Positions 15,927 through 31,551 of a stretch of DNA of 64,000 nt are shown here, in pieces. The translations under genes were made by a program, and so were the position numbers. The stretch comes from an uncultured Prevotellaceae bacterium (GTDB lineage: Bacteria > Bacteroidota > Bacteroidia > Bacteroidales > Bacteroidaceae): positions 8,773-72,772 of the forward strand of contig ONJJ01000021.1 of assembly GCA_900318115.1 (NCBI GenBank), given 5' to 3'. Within the stretch, counting starts at the first letter, position 1; each line of letters opens with the position of its first letter. The notes under the pieces are model-generated. The model did no database searches. It saw only the letters and a program-made list of their open reading frames with translations, and was not told the origin of the DNA.

Positions 15927-17255
15927 TTACAAGTGCTGCAGCGCTTCGACGGGTCGCTTGCGGCAGGTTCGCCAGGCAGGGACGAGGATGCCGAGGGTGA
16001 CGACAGCGAGGAGGATAAGGTACTGGATGACACAGATGACGAGGTAGTGTATCCAGAAGATTTCCACCCAATTGCGCTCCCGTCCCGTGCCGCTCATGCT
16101 TAGGCCATCGGAGAGGTCCATGTTGATGGCGAACTGGAACCAGATGAGCTGGCCGACGATGCAGGCCAGCAGGGTCAGCAGCGCGGCCTCGCCCCATACC
16201 ATACAGAAGATGTCGCGGCGCTTGGCGCCAAAACTGCGCATGATGCCGATGTCCTCCGTGCGCTTGCGCAGCTGCAGCCAGAAAGTGCCGAGTGTGCCCA
16301 GCACCACGTTCAGCAGGAATAGGGCAAGGAGGATTCCGAGGAGGGTGTTGGTGAGGTTGTAGTCTCTGTTGCCACTCCATGACGACAGCCAATCTTTATA
16401 GGTCTGGAGAGAGTAGAGGAAGTGATTGCCGGCTTGTAGCAGAGAGGCGCTGCTTCGACCGTCGGGAAAACCGACGGGCACACTGACGGTTTGGTAGTGA
16501 TTGATGAAGGCTTCTGCATCGGCTTCGGGCTTCAGTCGAATGAGCATCTGCGGGGTTGCATACTCTTGGATTACAGGAGTCAGAATGGAATAGGCATAGC
16601 GATCATTCTGCTGCAAGCGGAAATCCTCCACGACGCCCGCGATGGTGTAGCGGCTGACGATGACCGGCCCGCCTTGCTCCTGCAGCGCACGGTCGCTGAA
16701 GTCCCATTCCACCATGCGGCGGCCCACTACTTGGTCGGTACCAAAGATGGCCTGTGCCAGGCTGCGGGTGATGACCACGCCGCCCTCCGGACATTCCTCG
16801 GAAAGTACTCTCGCCGAAGGGCTGCCCTCGATAGGCGTCAAACCTTGCGTCTCGAAGTACTGCTCATGCAGCAGGAAACCCTGCATGTAGGCTCCGCAAC
16901 GGCGAGTGGAGTCGGCCTCAGAAGCATAGGAACTGGTATGGTAGGTACCTTGGCCAATGATGTGACTGGTGAAGCCTGCATACTGAACCTCGGGCAGAGC
17001 ACGAATCTGGTCGCGCAGGGCATAGAGGGAAGCCTCACCCACGGAAGACGAATTGGGACTGAAGTCCTTGATTCCCGTCTGCCCCACCAACAAGTGCTCC
17101 TTCTCGAACTCCCCGGCGGGACGACAAAAGTATGTGTCGAAGGTGGTTACGACGAAGTGGTCAATGAAGTAGAAACTGAGGACGGTGATGAGGATAATCT
17201 CAGCAAAGACCCAGCCGTTCTGACGGCGATGGGACCAGAGGTTCTTGAGTATCAT
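15927..17255 (-). CDS. FtsX/MacB-type ABC permease, type-2 paralogue (third pair)
   Basis: FtsX block ..IGIMRSFGAKRRDIFCMVWGEAALLTLL..VPAWRTCRKRPVEALQHL. TM1 is WVFAEIILITVLSFYF. The start is set at ATG 17255, which overlaps the upstream stop as ATGA. The 86 extra codons of track ORF 15927..17513 overlap the preceding gene. Confidence 0.85.
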   Translation of the reverse strand: MILKNLWSHRRQNGWVFAEIILITVLSFYFIDHFVVTTFDTYFCRPAGEFEKEHLLVGQTGIKDFSPNSSSVGEASLYALRDQIRALPEVQYAGFTSHIIGQGTYHTSSYASEADSTRRCGAYMQGFLLHEQYFETQGLTPIEGSPSARVLSEECPEGGVVITRSLAQAIFGTDQVVGRRMVEWDFSDRALQEQGGPVIVSRYTIAGVVEDFRLQQNDRYAYSILTPVIQEYATPQMLIRLKPEADAEAFINHYQTVSVPVGFPDGRSSASLLQAGNHFLYSLQTYKDWLSSWSGNRDYNLTNTLLGILLALFLLNVVLGTLGTFWLQLRKRTEDIGIMRSFGAKRRDIFCMVWGEAALLTLLACIVGQLIWFQFAINMDLSDGLSMSGTGRERNWVEIFWIHYLVICVIQYLILLAVVTLGILVPAWRTCRKRPVEALQHL

Positions 17256-18625
17256 TTCTTCTGGTTTAGCGATTCGACAATAGGTTTGCGTAGTGAGGTC
17301 CATGACGGTATGAGGGCGACCATGAGATTCAGGACGACACAGCAGAGAAAGACGATGAGGAAGAGGGCGGGCGTTACGAACATGTTGAAATCCAATGTGA
17401 TGTCGCCTGTGAGGTTGCCTTCGCGGAGGATGAGCGCCTGGAACATCGCCGTATGGCGGACGGCCAGATAGAACAGCCATGAGAGCACCCATCCTACGAG
17501 GCCGCCGCAGCACGTCAGGACGAGGTTCTCGCGAATGACCTCGCGCAGCAGCTTGCGCCGCTTGGCGCCGAATGCTTTGCGTATGCCCATCTCTGCCCGC
17601 CGCGCTTCCATGCGGTTGCTGATGAGACCGCTGAGGTTCAGGGCTGGCAGCAGCAGAAAGATAAGCATCAGGATGGCGGGCGGCATCAGGTTCTTGGCTT
17701 TGTCGGAAGTGGACTCGTCATCGGAGTGGAAGAAACTGAAGCACACAAAGAAATGTGACTTAACATCTACCGCGAAGTGTACGGGCTCGCCTTCGGCTGA
17801 ACTCTGTGCCGCCTCGTAGCGTCGGCACAGCGGTTCCAACTCCTTCATGAAATCGTTGCGCGAATAGCCATTCTTCAGCAGCAAGCGCACGCTGAGGTTT
17901 CCTTTGTAGCTGGTAGGATTAGCCTCAGTATGGCTTAACTCTTTGCCAAGGTAAGGGGCATAGAACTCGGCATAGGAGGCGTCCATCATGGGGCTGGCAC
18001 TCTTGACGATGCCGATGATGCGGTAGGGGATGGAGTTGATGTAAAGGGTGGGCACGGGGGTGGGCTGTTGGGGATTGGGATGGGTTATCCCAATCTTCTC
18101 CAAGAACTTATCCGTCACCACACACACAGGCTCCCCGTTGCGGAACTCCTGTTCGTTGAAAGGGCGGCCCTCGAGGAACTGGAAGTCATAGAGTTGGAAG
18201 AAACGGGGATCGCAGTACAAGGCACGCAGATTGCTTTCCAGCGGAAGAGGAGCCGACGGAACCGAATCCATCCGGAAGAACTCATAGTTATTTCTAAAAA
18301 GCCCCGTTGCCACCTCCACACTCTCCAGTTTGCTGAACAATTCATCCACGGCGAGGGTGCTGCAGCCCGTGTACATCGGACCGTCCACTTCGTTGTCCTT
18401 GTATTGCAAGGCGGTGACATAAAGTGTGCGGTCGCGGTGCGTCTCCGGGTAGATATTCGCCATCTTGATGTTTAGCATGATGGCTACGACCATGGCGGAC
18501 GCTATTGCCACCGCCGTGCCTGCGATGTAGATGGCAAAGGCAATAAAGTCGGACTCTCCCCCCGCCCTCCCTATAAGGGAGGGAGCAGAATGTATTAGAC
18601 TGGATGTATTCGTATTCGTTTTCAT
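17252..18625 (-). CDS. FtsX/MacB-type ABC permease, type-1 paralogue (third pair), with repeat-encoded N-terminus
   Basis: C-terminal block ..MGIRKAFGAKRRKLLREVIRENLVLT..IPSWTSLRKPIVESLNQKK aligns with the other type-1 modules. The N-terminus MKTNTNTSSLIHSAPSLIGRAGGES is encoded by the palindromic cassette. Confidence 0.85.
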   Translation of the reverse strand: MKTNTNTSSLIHSAPSLIGRAGGESDFIAFAIYIAGTAVAIASAMVVAIMLNIKMANIYPETHRDRTLYVTALQYKDNEVDGPMYTGCSTLAVDELFSKLESVEVATGLFRNNYEFFRMDSVPSAPLPLESNLRALYCDPRFFQLYDFQFLEGRPFNEQEFRNGEPVCVVTDKFLEKIGITHPNPQQPTPVPTLYINSIPYRIIGIVKSASPMMDASYAEFYAPYLGKELSHTEANPTSYKGNLSVRLLLKNGYSRNDFMKELEPLCRRYEAAQSSAEGEPVHFAVDVKSHFFVCFSFFHSDDESTSDKAKNLMPPAILMLIFLLLPALNLSGLISNRMEARRAEMGIRKAFGAKRRKLLREVIRENLVLTCCGGLVGWVLSWLFYLAVRHTAMFQALILREGNLTGDITLDFNMFVTPALFLIVFLCCVVLNLMVALIPSWTSLRKPIVESLNQKK

Positions 18626-18706
18626 TTATGTTTATTGGCATTTAATATGTTTTCAAATCTTGAAGGTAACCACTCCCTCCCTCACAGGGAGGGCGGGGAG
18701 TGGGTC
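18551..18706. repeat. Composite palindromic cassette (two inward-facing ~36-nt GC-rich hairpin units plus 84-nt AT-rich spacer carrying a start codon)
   Basis: Units GGACTCTCCCCCCGCCCTCCCTATAAGGGAGGGAGC (18551-18586) and CACTCCCTCCCTCACAGGGAGGGCGGGGAGTGGGTC (18671-18706). ATG 18625 lies in the spacer. Alignable with 24162-24322. Confidence 0.85.
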
Positions 18707-18744: not shown

Positions 18745-19506
18745 CTACTGAATCTGCCGTCCATCCAAGAACTTGATAATCCTGTCCGTCTGTTCGGCTT
18801 GCTTCTCGTTGTGCGTCACCATGACTATGGTGCGGCCGTCCTCTTTATTCAGCTTATGCAGTAGCTCCATAATCTCGGCGCCCATCTTCGAGTCGAGGTT
18901 ACCTGTGGGCTCGTCGGCGAGGAGGATTTCGGGGTTACCGATGATGGCGCGGGCGATGGCTACGCGCTGACACTGACCACCAGAGAGTTGCGTTGGGCGG
19001 TGCTTCATGCGGTGCGAGAGGCCTACGCGGGCAATGACTTCCTTGGCCAGCCGCGTGCGCTCGCTGCGGCCTACGCCCCGATAGATAAGGGGCAGCATCA
19101 CGTTGTCCAGTACGTTCAGCGTCGGGATGAGGTGGAAGCTCTGGAAGACGAAGCCCAGCGTCTTGTTGCGGATCTCCGCCAGACGGTTGTCGCTCATCTT
19201 CGGGTCGATGCGCTGTCCGCACAGCTCTATCTCGCCGCTGGTGGGTTCGTCTAAGAGTCCCATGATGTTCAGCAGCGTCGACTTGCCGCAGCCCGAAGGT
19301 CCCATGATGCTGAGGAACTCGCCCCTCTTCACTTCGAGGTTCACATTTTCGAGGGCTTGTGTCTCTACTTCGTCGGTACGGTAGATCTTGTTGATGCCGG
19401 TAAGGCGGATAACAGCCTCACCCCCAACCCCTCTCCGAAAAGAGAGGGGAGTGGTTACATCTTGACTCGGTTGATTCTGGTCGTTAAAAATCTTTTCAGT
19501 GTTCAT
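18745..19506 (-). CDS. ABC transporter ATP-binding protein (MacB/LolD-like NBD)
   Basis: Walker A GPSGCGKST, signature LSGGQCQRVAIARA, Walker B ILLADEPTGNLD. The 31-residue N-terminal extension contains the repeat-encoded TTPLSFRRGVGGEA. Confidence 0.9.
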   Translation of the reverse strand: MNTEKIFNDQNQPSQDVTTPLSFRRGVGGEAVIRLTGINKIYRTDEVETQALENVNLEVKRGEFLSIMGPSGCGKSTLLNIMGLLDEPTSGEIELCGQRIDPKMSDNRLAEIRNKTLGFVFQSFHLIPTLNVLDNVMLPLIYRGVGRSERTRLAKEVIARVGLSHRMKHRPTQLSGGQCQRVAIARAIIGNPEILLADEPTGNLDSKMGAEIMELLHKLNKEDGRTIVMVTHNEKQAEQTDRIIKFLDGRQIQ

Positions 19507-19639
19507 AATTTCCTTTTATTTAGTTAATAATTCTATTCTTGAAACTAATAACTCCCCTCATAACTCCCCTCTCCTTTCGGAGAGGGGTCGGGGGTGAGGC
19601 CACTCCCCTCTCCTTTCGGAGAGGGGCGGGGGGAGAGTC
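19415..19639. repeat. Composite palindromic cassette, variant B (one unit in the ATPase 5' coding region, two tandem units upstream, AT-rich spacer with start codon)
   Basis: GCCTCACCCCCAACCCCTCTCCGAAAAGAGAGGGGAGTGG (19415-19454). ACTCCCCTCTCCTTTCGGAGAGGGGTCGGGGGTGAGGC (19563-19600). CACTCCCCTCTCCTTTCGGAGAGGGGCGGGGGGAGAGTC (19601-19639). ATG 19506 lies in the spacer. Confidence 0.85.
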
Positions 19640-19641
19640 TT

Positions 19642-22245: not shown

Positions 22246-22262
22246 TTGCAATTTCCGTGCCA
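22246..22262 (-). promoter_or_regulatory. Sigma-54 promoter (TGGCACGGAAATTGCA) upstream of the fused permease / ATPase / third permease pair
   Basis: Minus-strand TGGCAC-N5-TTGCA, -12 element about 45 nt upstream of ATG 22203. Confidence 0.8.
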
Positions 22263-22304: not shown

Positions 22305-22343
22305 TGTCCATTTCTGGACACACGATGTGTTCGGAAATGGACA
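22305..22343. promoter_or_regulatory. Paired enhancer (UAS) dyads for the NtrC-type activator
   Basis: TGTCCATTTCTGGACA (22305-22320) and TGTTCGGAAATGGACA (22328-22343). The same pair recurs at the other two sigma-54 promoters. Confidence 0.7.
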
Positions 22344-22420: not shown

Positions 22421-22861
22421 TTTTTTCATTTTTTAACTTAGAAAAGTGCGCACCTGTCACCAACGGGCGAATCCGGTTGCTTTTCATAGCTCCATTCAGC
22501 CGGACTCATACCCAAAGACTTCCAGTCATATACATATATTCGTCCTTAATTCATCTTAAAACCACCGCGTGGTTTTTACAAATCACGATGTGGTTTTTAT
22601 AACCCACCCCTTGGTTTTGACGAACTACGGTGTGAATTGTAGATGAAAACAGGACGTTTGAAAGAAGAGGCCCAAACAGACAGAGATATCAACCTCCTCC
22701 ATCCAGTTTTTGTAGCGACAACAAAGCGCGCCACATCGTCGTTCCTCTCGAGGATTGATGTGCTTTTGAGTTGGTGAGTTTGTAAAACGACGAGTTAACA
22801 GCAAAGCGCACCTACCCATTGGTGACAGGTGCGCTCTTTTCTAAGTTAAAAAATGAAAAAA
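22421..22861. mobile_element. 441-bp non-coding element bounded by 47-bp terminal inverted repeats (MITE-like or invertible segment)
   Basis: The left arm is TTTTTTCATTTTTTAACTTAGAAAAGTGCGCACCTGTCACCAACGGG (22421-22467). The right arm (22815-22861) is its reverse complement with 2 mismatches. There is no credible ORF inside. It lies between two sigma-54 transcription units. Confidence 0.65.
22558..22640. repeat. Four dyad-symmetric sites phased at 21-22 bp inside the TIR element
   Basis: AAAACCAC-CGC-GTGGTTTT (22558), AAATCAC-GAT-GTGGTTTT (22580), AACCCA-CCCC-TTGGTTTT (22601), GAACTAC-GGT-GTGAATT (22622). Confidence 0.6.
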
Positions 22862-22892: not shown

Positions 22893-24230
22893 TCACTCCT
22901 CCCTCAGCGCATTGGTGATACGTGTCCTTGTGATGCGCCATGCTGGTATGGCGGTTCCGATGAGGACGGTGACTAATATAATAAGGTACACGACGGCGGA
23001 GACGATGAGGAAGTGGGACCAGAAGTGGTCGGGCCAGGTCATATCGGTGGCGAGGTCGTAGAACATGGGCATGTAGAGCGTTTCAAAGGCCGTGACGCCG
23101 TCCTCGGTGGTGGTGATGCCGCTGTAGGCATAGTTCAGGTAGATGATGACTCCGATGAGTACGGCGGCAGTGGCGAGGGCTTCGTTCCGCAACAGCATCT
23201 CGCAGAACAGACGGCGGCGGGTGGCACCAAAGGCTCGGCGTACACCACACTCTTCTGTGCGACGCTTGGCGTGGAGCCAGACGGTGCCGATGACGGCGAG
23301 GACGAGATTCAGCAGGAAGAAGAGGGCGAGGGCCAGACTGCGGTTCACCTCCTGTGTGCGGCCGTCGTCCAATTCCTGCTGCTGCAGACGGTCATCGTAG
23401 GTCATGAGCGTGCTGATGCGAGCGAAGTTAGTCTTGCCGCTACGGATGAGGTCTCGGCCGTGATCCTCCACAAAACGGCGGGCGTCAACGCCCTCGCGCA
23501 GACGAAGAACAAAGAGGCATTGGGTGGTTTGCAGGGTTCCGGGTTTGAGGATAATCGAGCGCTGGTTGAAGGGCAGCGCCTTGCGGAAATCCTCCACCAC
23601 GCCGGCCACCGTCACCTCGTAAGCCGGCTGATAGCATAACGTGAAGCGGCGGCCCACCACGTCGGCGGTGCCGAAGAGGGCAATGGCACCAGAGCGCGTG
23701 AGCACCACCTTCGGTTCCTGCCATGGGATGCGTGAGAGTTCTTCGGCAGAGGGGCTGCCAGGCAGAGGATGCAGGCCGTAGGTCTCGAAGAAGCGGGAGT
23801 CGGGAATGAACAGGACATGTGCCAGCAGGATGGTGTCGCCCTCATTGCAACATTGAAGATAGCCGGAGCTGGTCGAGCCGATGGAGGAGTAGCGGTCGTC
23901 GTAGAGGTACGCTGTCTCCACGCCTTCTACTTCCGTCAGCTGGCGCGTCAGCTGCTGGCGGCGTTTCTCGGTCATCTTATAGGGGTCTGTCAGGTCGCCA
24001 TCCTCATCGGTTTCCCATTCACCATCCACGGTACATTCTCCGTAGAGCAGGCGGCTGGTGTCATAACCTAATGGCAGGTTGCGGTAATAGAGATTGACAA
24101 CGGCAGGGTCGAAGACCACCCAGGCAACGACGGTGATGATGACGAGCTCGAGGAAAAGGACGGACTCTCCCCCCGCCCTCCCTGTTAGGGAGGGAGCGGA
24201 ATGTATTTGACTGGCTGTATTCATTTTCAT
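22893..24230 (-). CDS. FtsX/MacB-type ABC permease, type-2 paralogue (first pair), with repeat-encoded N-terminus
   Basis: FtsX block ..CGVRRAFGATRRRLFCEMLL..AIPAWRITRTRITNALREE. The first 23 codons MKMNTASQIHSAPSLTGRAGGES lie in the palindromic cassette. Confidence 0.85.
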   Translation of the reverse strand: MKMNTASQIHSAPSLTGRAGGESVLFLELVIITVVAWVVFDPAVVNLYYRNLPLGYDTSRLLYGECTVDGEWETDEDGDLTDPYKMTEKRRQQLTRQLTEVEGVETAYLYDDRYSSIGSTSSGYLQCCNEGDTILLAHVLFIPDSRFFETYGLHPLPGSPSAEELSRIPWQEPKVVLTRSGAIALFGTADVVGRRFTLCYQPAYEVTVAGVVEDFRKALPFNQRSIILKPGTLQTTQCLFVLRLREGVDARRFVEDHGRDLIRSGKTNFARISTLMTYDDRLQQQELDDGRTQEVNRSLALALFFLLNLVLAVIGTVWLHAKRRTEECGVRRAFGATRRRLFCEMLLRNEALATAAVLIGVIIYLNYAYSGITTTEDGVTAFETLYMPMFYDLATDMTWPDHFWSHFLIVSAVVYLIILVTVLIGTAIPAWRITRTRITNALREE

Positions 24231-24322
24231 TTATGTTTTATTGTTCATTTAATCTTTTTAAGTGTTTACCATCCTTGAAGGTATTTGCTCCCTCCCTAAC
24301 AGGGAGGGCGGGGGGAGAGTCC
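24162..24322. repeat. Composite palindromic cassette (two inward-facing units plus 89-nt AT-rich spacer carrying a start codon)
   Basis: GGACTCTCCCCCCGCCCTCCCTGTTAGGGAGGGAGC (24162-24197) and GCTCCCTCCCTAACAGGGAGGGCGGGGGGAGAGTCC (24287-24322). ATG 24230 lies in the spacer. Confidence 0.9.
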
Positions 24323-24327
24323 GTTTT

Positions 24328-25689
24328 TTATTGCTTTTCCATCATTGATTCTACAATAGGTTTGCGCAAACTCCACCACGCAGGCACTACGGCGGCGAGC
24401 AGGTTGAGGAGGAGGATGGCAGCGAAAGCACAGAGGAAGAGTGTGGGAGCAAAGAGCATCTCACCTTCCACGATGGGTGCTGTGGTGAGCGTGCTTCTGT
24501 CGAAGAACATGCCAAATATCTCCGTGCGCAACCCGTAGATGGCGAGCCACGATAGAGCGAGACCGATGGCACCGCCGATACTAGTCAGCAGCAGGTTCTC
24601 CCATACTACTTGATTTAAAAGTGTGCTGCGACGTGCACCGAAAGTCTTGCGAACCGCCATCTCCGCCGACCGCCGTTCCATGCGTCCCGCGACAATGCTG
24701 CAGAGGTTCAGTGCAGGAACAAAGAGCAACACGAAAAGGATGCCCGCGTAGTGCTTGAAGAGCTGCCAACCCGTGACGACGCCGAAGACGCCGTCGCGAT
24801 TCTCGGTGCGCAGCACGTGCATCGGGTGCGTTTCCAAGCCCTTGGTGAGCACCATCGTCATCTTCACGCCTTCGCCGAAGCTGAAGTTGCGAGTGGGCAT
24901 CAAATCTGGCTGAGACAGCTGGAGGCGCACGACCAGGTCATCCAGTTCCTGCTTCAGCGCCTGAAGGTGCTCACTGTCTTTCACGGTGGCGATGACGGCG
25001 AACAGGCCGGAATAGGGTGAACCTACATAGAAATCCACAAGCGTGTAGGGGATGATAATGTCGGCATAGCTGTCGGGGGTGAGCTGGCTCCCACTGCGCA
25101 CCACGCCCACCACGCGTGTCTCGGGGTTGTTCTCGATGGTTATCATGCGTCCCAAGGCGTTCTCACCCTTACCGAACAGCCGCTCGGCCAGCGCATCGGT
25201 GATGACACAGACGGCCTCCTTTGCCTCCACCTCCTGTGCTGTGAAAGGCCGACCGCTCACGAAGTCGTACTCGTAGATCTTGAAGAAGTCGGCATTGGTC
25301 CAGTTCTTGACGACGTTGATGTACTCGTCATGACCACGCACCACACAGGCGTGACTGCGGCTATCCATCTTGCCCGTTCCTGCGGCGAGTAGCGTGGGTG
25401 CGCAGTACTCGATATGAGGACTCGGAAGGAACCACTCCTCAAACGCCTTTGGGCTAAAACCCGTGTTGCCCTGTCCACCATTCTCGGCCTGAATGTTAAT
25501 ACCCTCGAAGTACACCGTCCGCGAACGGTTCACTTCGGGGTAGATGGGAGCGAGCTTGATGTAATAGACCACCGCCATCACCATCGTGAAGGCAAGGGCC
25601 ATGGCGGTACCTGCGATGTAGATACCGGAGAAGAGCTTCTCCTCGCGCATCATGGCCAGGGCCTGGCGAATGTACATAAATACTTTCAT
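24328..25689 (-). CDS. FtsX/MacB-type ABC permease, type-1 paralogue (first pair)
   Basis: Start set at ATG 25689 (MKVFMYIRQALAMMREEKLFS), matching the start of 19642..22203. The track start 25755 would run through the sigma-54 promoter. FtsX block ..MAVRKTFGARRSTLLNQVVWENLLLT..VPAWWSLRKPIVESMMEKQ. Confidence 0.85.
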   Translation of the reverse strand: MKVFMYIRQALAMMREEKLFSGIYIAGTAMALAFTMVMAVVYYIKLAPIYPEVNRSRTVYFEGINIQAENGGQGNTGFSPKAFEEWFLPSPHIEYCAPTLLAAGTGKMDSRSHACVVRGHDEYINVVKNWTNADFFKIYEYDFVSGRPFTAQEVEAKEAVCVITDALAERLFGKGENALGRMITIENNPETRVVGVVRSGSQLTPDSYADIIIPYTLVDFYVGSPYSGLFAVIATVKDSEHLQALKQELDDLVVRLQLSQPDLMPTRNFSFGEGVKMTMVLTKGLETHPMHVLRTENRDGVFGVVTGWQLFKHYAGILFVLLFVPALNLCSIVAGRMERRSAEMAVRKTFGARRSTLLNQVVWENLLLTSIGGAIGLALSWLAIYGLRTEIFGMFFDRSTLTTAPIVEGEMLFAPTLFLCAFAAILLLNLLAAVVPAWWSLRKPIVESMMEKQ

Positions 25690-25731
25690 CTTTCTATAAC
25701 GAATTATACAAATGATTATACACCCATTCCC

Positions 25732-25748
25732 TTGCAATTTCCGTGCCA
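25732..25748 (-). promoter_or_regulatory. Sigma-54 promoter (TGGCACGGAAATTGCA) upstream of the first permease pair
   Basis: Identical 16-mer to the one at 22246-22262, about 45 nt upstream of ATG 25689. Confidence 0.8.
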
Positions 25749-25791
25749 AACGCATAACTCATTGATTCTGAGCAATAGCATAAAAAACAAT

Positions 25792-25830
25792 TGTCCATTT
25801 CTGGACAATCGGAGTGTTCGGAAATGGACA
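25792..25830. promoter_or_regulatory. Paired enhancer (UAS) dyads
   Basis: TGTCCATTTCTGGACA (25792-25807) and TGTTCGGAAATGGACA (25815-25830), ending 1 nt before the kinase stop codon. Confidence 0.7.
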
Positions 25831-25831
25831 A

Positions 25832-27118
25832 TCAAGGCTTAGCGGCTGGGAAGAGGATGGTGAAACGGGTGAGGTGGTCGGTGGGGTCGGTCTGAAGGGT
25901 AAAGGTACATCCGTGTGCGGTGAGGATATCGCGGATGAGCAGGAGGCCGAGGCCCTGACCTTGGGGCTTGGTGGAGAAGAAGGGTGTGAAGAGGTGCCGT
26001 GCTGCTTCGGTGGAGATGCCACGACCGTTGTCGGTGATGGTAAGGGAAGACTCTCCCCCCGCCCTCCCTGTTAGGGAGGGAGCATAATGATTTGAAGGCA
26101 GTAACTTCTGAATAGCGACGGTAATTACTCCCTCCCTCATAGGGAGGGCGGGGGGAGAGTCCTTTATACTCTCCACGCTATTCTTAACAATATTCACCAG
26201 CACTTGCTGAAAGAGGACGGGGTCGAGGTGGACGGGGATGGCATCGTCAGTCAGGTGGAAGTCGAGACGGACGTTGGCAGCAAGGCAGAGGTTCTCGAGG
26301 AAGGGTCGACAGCCCTCGACTTCCTCGCTGAGGTCGCAGAGCTGCAGCTGCGGCGCTGGAATCTTGACGACTTCGGCGAAGCGTGTGACGAAGGAGGCCA
26401 TGGCCAAGAGCCGTTCGCGTAAAGCGGTATTGTCCAATGCGCCAACGATTCCCGCCACGCTGTTGTTGACCTCATGGGCTATCATTCGGATGACGCGCTC
26501 GTAGGCTGCTTTCTCTGCCAATCTGACCTCGGAGGTGAGGGACTCGATGAGGTAGAAAGGATGCTGATAGCCGCGGTCGGGGAACGAGAGGTGGCTGATG
26601 CGAAAGATACCAGGTTCGGCAGTCAGACGCACGGTAGTCTCGCTGCCGAGGGGCAGACGTTGCATGGCCTCGGAGATGACGGGCTTCATCATGCTGCGTG
26701 CGGCAGGATTCATGGAGGTGATGTTGCCATCGAGGTCGCATTGCACAACGCCCATGGGCGAAGCTTCGATGAGCAGGCTGAGGAAGGTGTATTGCTCTTC
26801 GAGGCTGAGGTGTTCGGTACGCAGCCGGGCAAGCAAGTCGTTGAAGGTGTGGACGATGATGTCTGTCTCGTGTTGTCCTGACGGGGCGAGGCGTGTGGTG
26901 AGGTCGAGGTCACGCACGAGTTCCATTCCGCTGATGAGGGTGTCGTAGGGCTGAAGCGTACGGCGATAGAAATATATAAGATAGATGAGTAGCAGGACGA
27001 TGAAGCACTCCGTCGTGTAGAATAGCCAAGAGTGACTCTGGAAGGTGGCGAACAGAGCCACACCCGCGAGCAGAAGAATGGCAACCACAAGAATCAGAAA
27101 AGAATACTTCAGTTTCAT
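25832..27118 (-). CDS. Sensor histidine kinase (2 TM, PAS-like, HisKA, HATPase_c) partner of the sigma-54 activator
   Basis: TM helices in MKLKYSFLILVVAILLLAGVALF.. and ..CFIVLLLIYLIYFY. H-box RMIAHEVNNS, N-box VLVNIVKNSVESI, G-boxes TDNGRGIS and GQGLGL. The ATG overlaps the upstream stop (ATGA at 27115-27118). Confidence 0.85.
   Translation of the reverse strand: MKLKYSFLILVVAILLLAGVALFATFQSHSWLFYTTECFIVLLLIYLIYFYRRTLQPYDTLISGMELVRDLDLTTRLAPSGQHETDIIVHTFNDLLARLRTEHLSLEEQYTFLSLLIEASPMGVVQCDLDGNITSMNPAARSMMKPVISEAMQRLPLGSETTVRLTAEPGIFRISHLSFPDRGYQHPFYLIESLTSEVRLAEKAAYERVIRMIAHEVNNSVAGIVGALDNTALRERLLAMASFVTRFAEVVKIPAPQLQLCDLSEEVEGCRPFLENLCLAANVRLDFHLTDDAIPVHLDPVLFQQVLVNIVKNSVESIKDSPPALPMREGVITVAIQKLLPSNHYAPSLTGRAGGESSLTITDNGRGISTEAARHLFTPFFSTKPQGQGLGLLLIRDILTAHGCTFTLQTDPTDHLTRFTILFPAAKP
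26049..26161. repeat. Inward-facing pair of palindromic units inside the histidine-kinase HATPase domain, read through in frame
   Basis: GACTCTCCCCCCGCCCTCCCTGTTAGGGAGGGAGC (26049-26083) and ACTCCCTCCCTCATAGGGAGGGCGGGGGGAGAGTC (26127-26161). 21-nt perfect terminal inverted repeat. Confidence 0.9.
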
Positions 27119-28500
27119 AGGCCGTGCTTCTCGATTTTGCGATAGAGGGCACCTCGGCTGATTCCGAGTTCCTTGGCCACGAGGGAGAGGTTTCCGGCGT
27201 GCTTCTGGATGGAGGCGGCGATGGCGGCGCGCTCGAGTTCTTCAAGGGTGGGAGATGGACCCGTCGGGGAAACCGACGGGCACACTGACTCATGGGAAGA
27301 GGGGGACAGGGACTGGCGAAAGTCGGCAGCGGTGAGTTCCTCTCCTTCTGCCATCAGCACGGTTCGCTCCACCAGGTTCTTCAGTTCGCGAATGTTGCCG
27401 GGGAGAGGGAGGGATTGGAGGAAGGAGATGGCATCCGCGGTGATGGCAATGTCGGTGGAGAGCGTGGACTGATGCAGGAAGAAATCCACAAGGATGGGGA
27501 TGTCCTCGCGGCGCTGGCGCAGGGGCGGCAGGTGGAGACTGATGAGGTTGATGCGGTAGAAGAGGTCTTCGCGGAAGGTGTGTTCCTCCACCATGGAGGG
27601 GAGATCCGCATTGGTGGCGCAGATGACACGGACATCGGTGCGGCGTGTGTGGCTGTCGCCCAGTACCTCGTAGGTCTGATCCTGAAGCACTCGGAGCAGC
27701 TTCACCTGGCTGGCAAGGTCGAGTTCTCCGATTTCGTCGAGGAAGATGGTGCCTCCCCTGGCGAGTTCGAATCGCCCTACCCTATCCTCTTTTGCATCGG
27801 TGAAGGCTCCTTTCTTATGGCCAAACATCTCGCTCTCGAACAACGACTGGGAAATACCTCCGAGGTTCACCTTCACGAAAGGTCCTTCGGCACGACGGCT
27901 CTGCCGGTGAATGGCCTCGGCAATAAGCTCCTTGCCCGTACCGCTCTCGCCCGTGATGAGGACGGGTGCATTGGTGGGAGCGATGCGGGCGATGGTGGAA
28001 TATACGGAGGCGAGGGAGGGGAGGAAGGCCCCTCTCCCCGCTCCCCCCGTGGGGGGGAGAGCTCTGGCAAAAGTTGATTCTTCACAAAGTTTTCGAGCGG
28101 AGCGAGGCTCTCCCCCTTTACGGGGGAGCGGGGAGAGGGTCCTCGCCGTTTCAATCCGATCCATGAGCACGCCGTTGTCCCACGGCTTGGTGATGAAGTC
28201 AAAGGCGCCGGCACGCATTCCCTGCACGGCAAGGTCTATGGTGCCCCAGGCTGTCATGAGGATGCAGGGAAGGTCTGGACGGAAGACCTTAACCTGCTTG
28301 AGCAGGGTGAGGCCTTCGTCGCCGGTAGTGGAATTGTCGTAGTTCATATCCATCAGAACCAATTCCACTTCCGGATGGCTTCGCACGACAGTGATGGCCT
28401 CCTTGGGGTTCTCGGCCAGTGCCACCGTGTAGTCGTTACGCTCCAGGACAAGTTTCAGCGTGAAACGGATGGTCTTATCGTCATCTACAACTAATATCAT
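27115..28500 (-). CDS. Sigma-54-dependent response regulator (receiver + AAA+ + Fis-type HTH), NtrC family
   Basis: Receiver MILVVDDDKTIRFTL..LVLMDMNY... Walker A GESGTGKE. Sigma-54 contact loop GAFTDA (GAFTGA variant). C-terminal HTH LVAKELGISRGALYRKIEKHGL. Confidence 0.9.
   Translation of the reverse strand: MILVVDDDKTIRFTLKLVLERNDYTVALAENPKEAITVVRSHPEVELVLMDMNYDNSTTGDEGLTLLKQVKVFRPDLPCILMTAWGTIDLAVQGMRAGAFDFITKPWDNGVLMDRIETARTLSPLPRKGGEPRSARKLCEESTFARALPPTGGAGRGAFLPSLASVYSTIARIAPTNAPVLITGESGTGKELIAEAIHRQSRRAEGPFVKVNLGGISQSLFESEMFGHKKGAFTDAKEDRVGRFELARGGTIFLDEIGELDLASQVKLLRVLQDQTYEVLGDSHTRRTDVRVICATNADLPSMVEEHTFREDLFYRINLISLHLPPLRQRREDIPILVDFFLHQSTLSTDIAITADAISFLQSLPLPGNIRELKNLVERTVLMAEGEELTAADFRQSLSPSSHESVCPSVSPTGPSPTLEELERAAIAASIQKHAGNLSLVAKELGISRGALYRKIEKHGL
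28027..28142. repeat. Inward-facing pair of palindromic units (variant C) inside the response-regulator linker, read through in frame
   Basis: GGCCCCTCTCCCCGCTCCCCCCGTGGGGGGGAGAGC (28027-28062) and GGCTCTCCCCCTTTACGGGGGAGCGGGGAGAGGGTCC (28105-28142). The outer 21 nt are inverted repeats (20/21). Confidence 0.85.
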
Positions 28501-31454: not shown

Positions 31455-31470
31455 GGCAAAAAGGGTGCCA
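31455..31470 (-). promoter_or_regulatory. Sigma-54 promoter (TGGCACCCTTTTTGCC) upstream of the TolC gene
   Basis: Minus-strand TGGCAC-N5-TTGC. The -12 element is only about 16 nt from ATG 31440. Confidence 0.7.
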
Positions 31471-31513: not shown

Positions 31514-31551
31514 TGTCCATTTTCGGACACGCAGGTGTTCGGAAATGGACA
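31514..31551. promoter_or_regulatory. Paired enhancer (UAS) dyads
   Basis: TGTCCATTTTCGGACA (31514-31529) and TGTTCGGAAATGGACA (31536-31551). Confidence 0.7.

Follow-up and report, generated by a model that had tools for sequence, protein, structure and literature searches.

We examined a stretch of 64,000 nt from an uncultured Prevotellaceae bacterium (contig ONJJ01000021.1 of assembly GCA_900318115.1; we call this whole stretch the window). In the window, a gene for a sensor histidine kinase carries a 113-nt palindromic element within its reading frame (Table 1). The kinase is encoded by an uninterrupted open reading frame (ORF) of 428 codons with HAMP, PAS, and HATPase_c domains, and the gene follows that of an NtrC-type sigma-54 response regulator (27115..28500). 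The match to Pfam's HATPase_c (PF02518) scores 58.6 bits (cut-off 26.4), and ZraS is the top profile match to the kinase among solved structures. All of the catalytic boxes are intact: HEVNNS (H), NIVKNSVES (N), DNGRGI (G1), FTPFFSTK (F), and GQGLGL (G2). The element lies between the N-box and the G1-box; the ATP lid is between the F-box and the G2-box. Nearly all orthologues of this kinase come from metagenome-assembled genomes of uncultured rumen Prevotellaceae or "Bacteroidaceae."

The two arms of the element are 34 nt each, are 94% complementary, and lie 45 nt apart. Their outer 21 nt (GACTCTCCCCCCGCCCTCCCT) form a perfect inverted repeat, which confirms the proposal in the initial annotation, made from the sequence alone, that the two outer peptides of this region are repeat-derived. 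Each arm has its own 8-bp GC hairpin (CCCTCCCT-NNN-AGGGAGGG), and the mismatches between the arms are confined to the 3-nt loops of these hairpins. The 19-nt core of the arm occurs six times in the window (0.02 expected). As RNA, the element is predicted to fold with -78.7 kcal/mol (z = -10.4). The translation of the minus strand is K-DSPPALPMRE-GVITVAIQKLLPSNHY-APSLTGRAGGES-S, flanked by VLVNIVKNSVESI and LTITDNGRGI. The same insertion is present in assemblies L001, L002, L136, and P0001-P0006. Because it is common to independent assemblies, it is not an assembly artefact.

Comparison with orthologues shows how much the element alters the protein. The distance from the Asn of the N-box (N313) to the Asp of the G1-box (D363) is 50 residues, as previously counted, versus 26 in insert-free orthologues and 28 in ZraS. 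Aligned from ES(I) to DNG, insert-free orthologues have 19-22 residues and the window's kinase has 44. Among 95 diverse homologues (below 50% mutual identity), this segment has 19-27 residues in 87, with a maximum of 38 in the other eight. At the element's position, two orthologues with roughly 70-86% identity (P0019 and L059) have GSSDGFIAITASARA, and L009 has TTQGLVTLEVTTPA. Since the element accounts for 38 of the 44 residues, about 15 native residues (a loop, strand beta1, and a turn) are absent. From these alignments, the element appears to have replaced about 15 native residues instead of being a pure addition.

We modelled the DHp and catalytic and ATP-binding (CA) domains alone with AlphaFold, using 129 diverse homologues (mean predicted local distance difference test score [pLDDT] 89.5; predicted template-modelling score [pTM] 0.81). 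This model supersedes a full-length model with 35 close orthologues, which was unusable (pLDDT 49, and around 30 in the CA domain). In the DHp-CA model, the helix of the N-box (model residues 106-125, kinase residues 300-319) is followed by a coil, DSPPALPMRE (model 126-135, kinase 320-329), a strand, GVITVAIQK (model 136-144, kinase 330-338), a second coil, LLPSNHYAPSLTGRAGGE (model 145-162, kinase 339-356), and another strand, SSLTITD (model 163-169, kinase 357-363). The lowest confidence in the model is in the second coil (block 151-160, pLDDT 59). Thus, the element-coded GVITVAIQK is predicted to occupy the position of beta1. Both arm peptides, which are rich in Pro, Gly, and Ser, are modelled as coil; we take these predicted loops to be at the surface. 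The top Foldseek match of the model is ZraS (9jfj_A; template-modelling score 0.72, E = 6e-17).

The gene itself is under purifying selection. The kinase from L001 (RUG12444) is 95% identical at the protein level, and outside the element the two genes have 60 synonymous and 21 non-synonymous differences, for a ratio of non-synonymous to synonymous rates (dN/dS) of roughly 0.1. Conservation is strong downstream of the element, where sliding windows of 38 codons contain 9-15 synonymous and 0-3 non-synonymous differences. With its full-length ORF and all of its boxes, the gene is intact and is not a pseudogene, which had been raised as a concern. Inside the element, there are no synonymous and four non-synonymous differences, as compared to about 6 synonymous differences expected from the gene-wide rate, or about 7-15 per 38 codons in the flanking windows. 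Such a pattern points to constraint or homogenisation that acts on the DNA or RNA, or to a recent patch of recombination; the comparison with L001 shows that the gene is a recombination mosaic. Separately, in one orthologue (P0020), the N-box is missing its second half and arm 1 is gone (NIVK------LLEVAFKG...). The gap resembles a deletion next to the element and may have inactivated that allele.

The element is not confined to this gene. To describe its family, we relied on metagenome contigs from a single scan with the arm pattern, and the figures for the family refer to the matches listed in that scan. Among these matches, we saw inverted pairs of arms (whose spacers span 37-436 nt), along with solo units, direct tandem arrays, and pairs of mixed subfamilies; there are at least 55 pairs and at least 64 solos. 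The arms are 34-43 nt long, are 85-95% complementary as terminal inverted repeats, and have the consensus RGACTCTCCCCCCG-CCCTCCCT-NNN-AGGGAGGG-AG. Beyond the 34-nt arm are moderately conserved tails of two types, T1 (CAGAATGTATTTGACTGG) and T2 (CGGTTACCTTTGAAG). Each unit consists of a C-rich outer tract, the 8-bp GC hairpin, and a moderately conserved tail of about 15-20 nt.

Copies with short spacers (37-69 nt) are nearly always within long ORFs, and copies with AT-rich cores of 71-92 nt are intergenic. Overall, about half of the paired copies are intragenic, in long ORFs. We examined 16 intragenic copies, and 13 of them share one reading frame, which encodes DSPPALP[VIM]REG[AV][VI]T, a variable part, and then [IE]HSAPSLTGRAGGES. 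We compared ten of the 16 host ORFs with Pfam, and each proved to be a recognisable gene (a CPSase fusion, CbiJ-CbiD, an MFS transporter, TamB, GH59, an AAA_12 helicase, altronate dehydratase, RecQ, a RapZ-like protein, and SDH_alpha). In two of these hosts, orthologous genes have different forms at the same site. For CPSase, L185 (1828-1924) has a 45-nt spacer and L116 (11757-11876) has a 68-nt spacer; for SDH_alpha, L091 (1704-1792) has a 37-nt spacer and L092 (6882-7038) has a 105-nt spacer. In both cases, the reading frames differ. Some contigs contain units arrayed head to tail in tandem, repeating about every 54 nt (L169 9023-9162, with four copies; L085 7406-7503; and L114 3488-3591), and others have pairs with arms of other subfamilies (L083 and L113), which look like clusters of bacterial interspersed mosaic elements (BIMEs).

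The 43 non-redundant pairs that we compared show no target-site duplication, as the frequency of short direct repeats (1-7 nt) is at or below the level expected by chance. Every one of these pairs is flanked by R on one side and by Y on the opposite side. We did not find a parent insertion sequence with matching ends, and no transposase search was made. In two contigs (L086 9416-9882 and L098 10230-10717), arms that are 415-436 nt apart surround a 121-residue ORF that resembles DUF559 (a Vsr-like endonuclease) by eye. Among the matches listed, this is the only ORF seen between distant arms, and it is at a single conserved locus, between a ClC channel gene and fmt. We considered this as an autonomous parent element and rejected it: the two contigs represent one and the same ClC-fmt locus from related genomes and are thus uninformative about mobility. 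[quoted passage not shown] The 113 bp in the kinase is likely one complete short-form copy of this non-autonomous REP/MITE-like family, which is abundant in uncultured rumen Prevotellaceae. An equally valid description of the same 113 bp is two units of about 56 nt that form a head-to-head dimer.

Did the 113 nt arise as one element or as two? The initial annotation favoured two independent insertions of about 33 nt around a native strand and offered, as its alternative, a single shortened copy of a longer cassette in the window. The spacer is informative here. Scored with position weight matrices, its T1 tail (the codons for S-N-H-Y-A) has 12.6 bits over 14 nt (p = 8e-5), and its T2 start, TAATTACC (the codons for G-V-I-T), has 8.9 bits over 8 nt (p = 1.6e-4). 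The corresponding tail peptides, REG[AV][VI]T ... [IE]HSAPSL, are present in at least 10 unrelated host proteins. Spacers of 45 nt recur in three other genes, and spacers of 48 nt in five. In altronate dehydratase (from L191), a 39-residue unit corresponds to just 3 residues in GarD (6u7l); this is a clean insertion, so the arms and the spacer are both foreign there. For the CbiD and helicase hosts, the divergence from solved structures around the element is too great to give exact insertion boundaries. The kinase's REGVITVAIQK is also close to a tail variant, REGAVTCAIVR, in the intergenic long forms of L085 and L171 (16 of 26 nt match; p is about 0.02, as the best of 232 comparisons).

We do not use the T2 match by itself as proof, because the codons for I-T in a native strand yield the TYAC core on their own, and the insert-free native strand of L009 reaches 5.9 bits. 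The case for one element rests instead on the T1 tail, on the peptides in unrelated hosts, and on the insertion in L191, which is clean. On this evidence, G-V-I-T and S-N-H-Y-A are encoded by the element, and the whole spacer is probably element-derived. We therefore consider it likely that the insert is one element, or else a tail-to-tail dimer without native DNA inside.

Several observations weigh against this. Subtracting two 11-residue arms from the 44 residues leaves 22, which is the length of the base state. GVITVAIQ is similar to the native strand of ZraS (GVISVTAS) and to those of the orthologues. Other copies offer no clear counterpart to the spacer's central 8 or so codons, which are hydrophobic-alternating only in the kinase versions. 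Past 8 nt, the T2-tail match is below the range of the family, and the score of L009 arose by chance. Also, we found no allele among the orthologues that has both the native beta1 and the 113-nt element.

The first four of these observations would fit with two solo units that inserted independently and in opposite orientations, the first in the loop that precedes beta1 and the second in the beta1-beta2 turn, with the native GVITVAIQ left between them. The net gain of 22 to 24 residues equals two arms, solos are common in the sample (at least 64, versus at least 55 pairs), and the hydrophobic-alternating middle is kept in all of the kinase versions. Furthermore, other orthologues (L019 and P0118) tolerate unrelated insertions in both loops. 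However, the fit of the G-V-I-T and S-N-H-Y codons to tails from unrelated hosts, the recurrence of the 45-nt spacer as a class, and the entirely foreign pair and spacer in altronate dehydratase speak against this model. It also requires a double hit at the same two positions, or later overwriting of both arms, for several subfamilies. We consider two insertions to be improbable. Conversely, the proposal of a single shortened copy is better supported, except that it was not a pure insertion, as about 15 native residues are gone.

The site holds different elements in different orthologues. In L003, it holds 36-nt arms of another subfamily around a 66-nt spacer, and the conserved tail encodes ...ITAQL. 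L064, L068, and P0007 have GCCCCCGAGGGGGC-type arms; L007 and L069 have hybrid arms and a 35-nt spacer; and L058 has a small element in the turn and keeps the native beta1. In L002, an extra hairpin is nested in arm 1. Specifically, at 6925-7140 of L002 (and also in P0002, P0003, P0005, and P0006), arm 1 is split by 36 nt with a 9-bp hairpin of their own (GGCGGAACA/TGTTCCGCC), which adds 12 residues (EPVQAEHSVPPS). Arm 2 of the element in P0067 bears a similar nested insertion. Every type of arm that is found at the kinase site also occurs elsewhere in the genomes. In a neighbour-joining tree of the mosaic gene, four states of the site coexist within a clade of at least 80% identity, including the insert-free P0019.

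We propose the following explanation. As the element is open in the reading frame that is used, it would be translated as a passenger in the kinase, where it would fill the whole interval from the N-box helix to strand beta2. The 15 or so native residues (loop, beta1, and turn) would have been lost by a later adjacent deletion or by a replacement-type event; we infer the order of these events, as well as the means of mobilisation. In the model, the tail-encoded GVITVAIQK would pair with beta2 as a substitute beta1. If so, the Bergerat ATP-binding fold would be kept, and the kinase would presumably have retained its activity. The element most likely has no dedicated function, although its stable hairpin in mRNA or DNA could lower or modulate the expression of the kinase as a side effect.

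Alternatively, the element might be kept as an RNA regulator, with a stem of about 34 bp that serves as a site for RNase III, as a brake on translation, or as a polarity signal and sets the ratio of kinase to regulator within the operon; the related element in the regulator gene would act likewise. The strength of the predicted hairpin and the lack of synonymous changes relative to L001 would fit with this, as would the presence of elements in both of the two-component genes. Also, the kinase site holds arms of several subfamilies in orthologues, some of them perfectly paired, and the regulator's linker does likewise across many lineages. But the same elements occur in intergenic DNA and in numerous genes that are unrelated, orthologues that lack the insert are frequent and include close relatives (P0019), arms have decayed in some lineages (L013 and P0100), and there is no matching family in Rfam, so we view a regulatory role as very improbable. 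That the kinase is decaying, inactive, or a pseudokinase, and hence tolerant of insertion, is hardly credible: the replacement of a core strand of the ATP-binding domain, the deletion into the N-box in P0020, and the nested insertions in the L002 and P0067 lineages point that way, but the ORF and the H, N, G1, F, and G2 boxes are intact, dN/dS is low, the fold is predicted confidently, and the insertion is kept across lineages at 88-95% identity.

The wider locus gives the element more context. Three matches to the sigma-54 promoter consensus lie downstream of paired TGTCCATTTCYGRACA palindromes (Table 1). There are six of these palindromes in the window as compared to 0.09 expected, and they are probably binding sites for the NtrC-type regulator. 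The units headed by these promoters encode TolC-like and HlyD-like proteins, the regulator, the kinase, several MacB/FtsX permeases, and an ABC ATPase. Such promoters, with their upstream palindromes, stand before the MacB/FtsX genes as well as the two-component genes, and it is thus very probable that the kinase is part of the locus that it regulates, as was originally suggested. The locus is of the MacB/TolC efflux type and is regulated by sigma-54. The listed start of one ORF (24328..25755) is upstream of one of the promoters, so it is probably spurious, and the true start is nearer to MKVFMYIRQ.

Table 1. Features of the kinase gene, its element, and the surrounding locus (positions in the window)
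Feature	Position	Strand	Remarks
Sensor histidine kinase, HAMP-PAS-DHp-HATPase_c, ZraS/NtrB-like	25832..27118	-	428 residues, intact
N-box helix VLVNIVKNSVESI	26165..26203	-	V306-I318
Short-form palindromic element, complete, 113 nt	26049..26161	-	In-frame translation is kinase residues D320-S357
Arm 1 (first on the coding strand)	26128..26161	-	Encodes DSPPALPMREG; internal 8-bp hairpin at 26130-26148
Spacer, 45 nt	26083..26127	-	Encodes (G)VITVAIQKLLPSNHY; both ends fit family subterminal sequences; first 9 residues are predicted strand beta1
Arm 2	26049..26082	-	Encodes APSLTGRAGGES; internal hairpin at 26062-26080
G1-box DNGRGI	26015..26032	-	D363-I368; native strand beta2 SLTIT just before
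Hairpin-pair element, other subfamily	28026..28143	-	Within the partner regulator's REC-AAA+ linker and in frame (residues 120-159, approximately)
Long-form copy, 43-nt arms, 89-nt AT-rich core	24155..24329		Between two FtsX/MacB genes; ATG and first ~23 codons of ORF 22893..24230
Long-form copy	18552..18706		5' end of FtsX gene 17252..18625; start codon of the ORF is inside
Third-subfamily element, arms GCCTCACCCCCAACCCCTCTCCGAAAAGAGAGGGGAGT, right arm tandem-duplicated	19414..19640		Overlaps 5' end of ABC ATPase gene 18745..19506
Sigma-54 promoter consensus TGGCAC-N5-TTGC, three sites	22247-22262, 25733-25748, 31455-31470	-	
Paired TGTCCATTTCYGRACA palindromes	22305-22343, 25792-25830, 31514-31551		Each promoter is 45-60 nt downstream of a pair

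The window has five hairpin-pair elements. All of them lie between 18.5 and 28.2 kb, in a 10-kb regulon, and there are none in the other 54 kb. The one in the partner regulator shows the same replacement pattern as in the kinase: the linker has 62 residues here versus 41 in the base state, and the element encodes 39 residues. In orthologues, this linker is occupied by many different subfamilies. The 160-bp cassette that the initial annotation compared to the kinase's insert is real and is the long-form copy between the FtsX/MacB genes; its likeness to the kinase copy at the ends of the spacer holds across the family. Long forms (the two in the window and L086 9829-10998) supply a start codon and about 20 N-terminal residues (M..N/T..SQIHSAPSLTGRAGGES). 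In L086, fmt, which is essential, has no other plausible start, so its N-terminus would be MNTTGQIHPAPSLTGRAGGES-SLRLIFMGTPDF. The window also contains an unrelated MITE-like element of 441 bp (22421-22861) between two permease genes, with 47-nt terminal inverted repeats that are 96% complementary and three tandem 21-nt units inside (22559-22621).

One of the two closest parallels is with the Rickettsia palindromic elements (RPEs), which are about 100-150 bp, lie in frame in unrelated functional genes, and encode a conserved peptide that is compatible with the fold of the host protein (Ogata et al. 2000, as summarised in PMC10969869). The family described here is similar in being a palindromic repeat with many in-frame copies in unrelated genes and a conserved peptide. 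The differences are that its sequence looks unrelated upon inspection; that its hosts are rumen Bacteroidota, presumably free-living, rather than obligate intracellular alpha-proteobacteria; that each arm has its own GC hairpin, and solo and tandem units occur; and that the element in the kinase would replace a core beta-strand, rather than only adding a surface loop. The arms are not known to contain a recognisable RPE sequence. We treat the family as an analogue of the RPEs and not as a member.

Dimers of REPs with GTAG or CGTC tags are another parallel: some lie inside genes and encode 20-40 residues, and different REPs are found at about the same site of orthologous genes, as for recB in Xanthomonas (Di Nocera et al. 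2013; PMC3733652). Like REPs, the units described here are short GC-rich palindromes with stems of 8-9 bp; they are predominantly head-to-head dimers, along with singles and clusters; they lack evident target-site duplications; and different elements occupy the same orthologous site. Unlike those REPs, the arms have no GTAG or CGTC tag, and the unit, which measures about 55 nt if the tail is included, is longer. Also, in contrast to REPs, BIMEs, and REP doublets forming hairpins (REPINs), the family is not strictly extragenic, with about half of its pairs inside long ORFs among the matches listed. Classical MITEs (Correia/NEMIS, ERIC/IRU, and Nezha, among others) share the terminal inverted repeats, the short core, the lack of coding capacity, the long and short forms, and the occasional in-frame fusion or donation of a promoter or start codon. 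They differ from this family, which lacks target-site duplications in the 43 pairs and whose arms are themselves hairpins and occur solo. As for the protein, the kinase resembles ZraS and NtrB in its DHp and HATPase_c domains, its full set of boxes, its NtrC-type partner, and the sigma-54 promoters in its locus. It differs from ZraS (9jfj) in the N-to-D distance given above and in that beta1, as predicted, and both flanking loops are coded by a mobile repeat. Overall, this is a new case, from Bacteroidota, within the known class of in-frame palindromic repeats.

These elements have practical consequences for the study of these genomes. The lengths of orthologues differ by tens of residues at fixed sites, annotated start codons may fall inside repeats, and breaks or chimaeras in assemblies may arise at the hairpins. 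If translated, the element in the kinase would yield the tryptic peptides EGVITVAIQK and LLPSNHYAPSLTGR. The kinase also offers a test of the robustness of a protein fold, as a mobile repeat appears to supply a core strand of the ATP-binding domain of a histidine kinase. Natural alleles that lack the element (P0019 and L059) have roughly 70-86% identity to the one that carries it, so a direct comparison is possible.

A more speculative view, which we think is unlikely, is that the elements serve as a self-renewing pool of translatable modules for the repeated rebuilding of protein segments in rumen Prevotellaceae. Occupied sites stay occupied while the subfamilies and spacers change (the kinase between the N-box and G1-box, the linkers of the regulator and of CPSase, and the loop of SDH_alpha); the pairing of the arms stays perfect, and the element is free of synonymous changes although the sequence around it diverges; the segment encoded by the element is predicted to be a core beta-strand of an ATP-binding fold; and essential genes, such as fmt, obtain their start codons and N-termini from long forms. 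Such a pool would be maintained by concerted evolution in situ via gene conversion, or by homing-like replacement.

Regardless of how the elements are maintained, they represent a second large case of selfish DNA within coding sequence, this time outside of Rickettsia and among bacteria that are abundant in the gut and rumen. For Rickettsia, such DNA is usually explained by relaxed selection in small intracellular populations. That explanation is less obviously available for the rumen Prevotellaceae.

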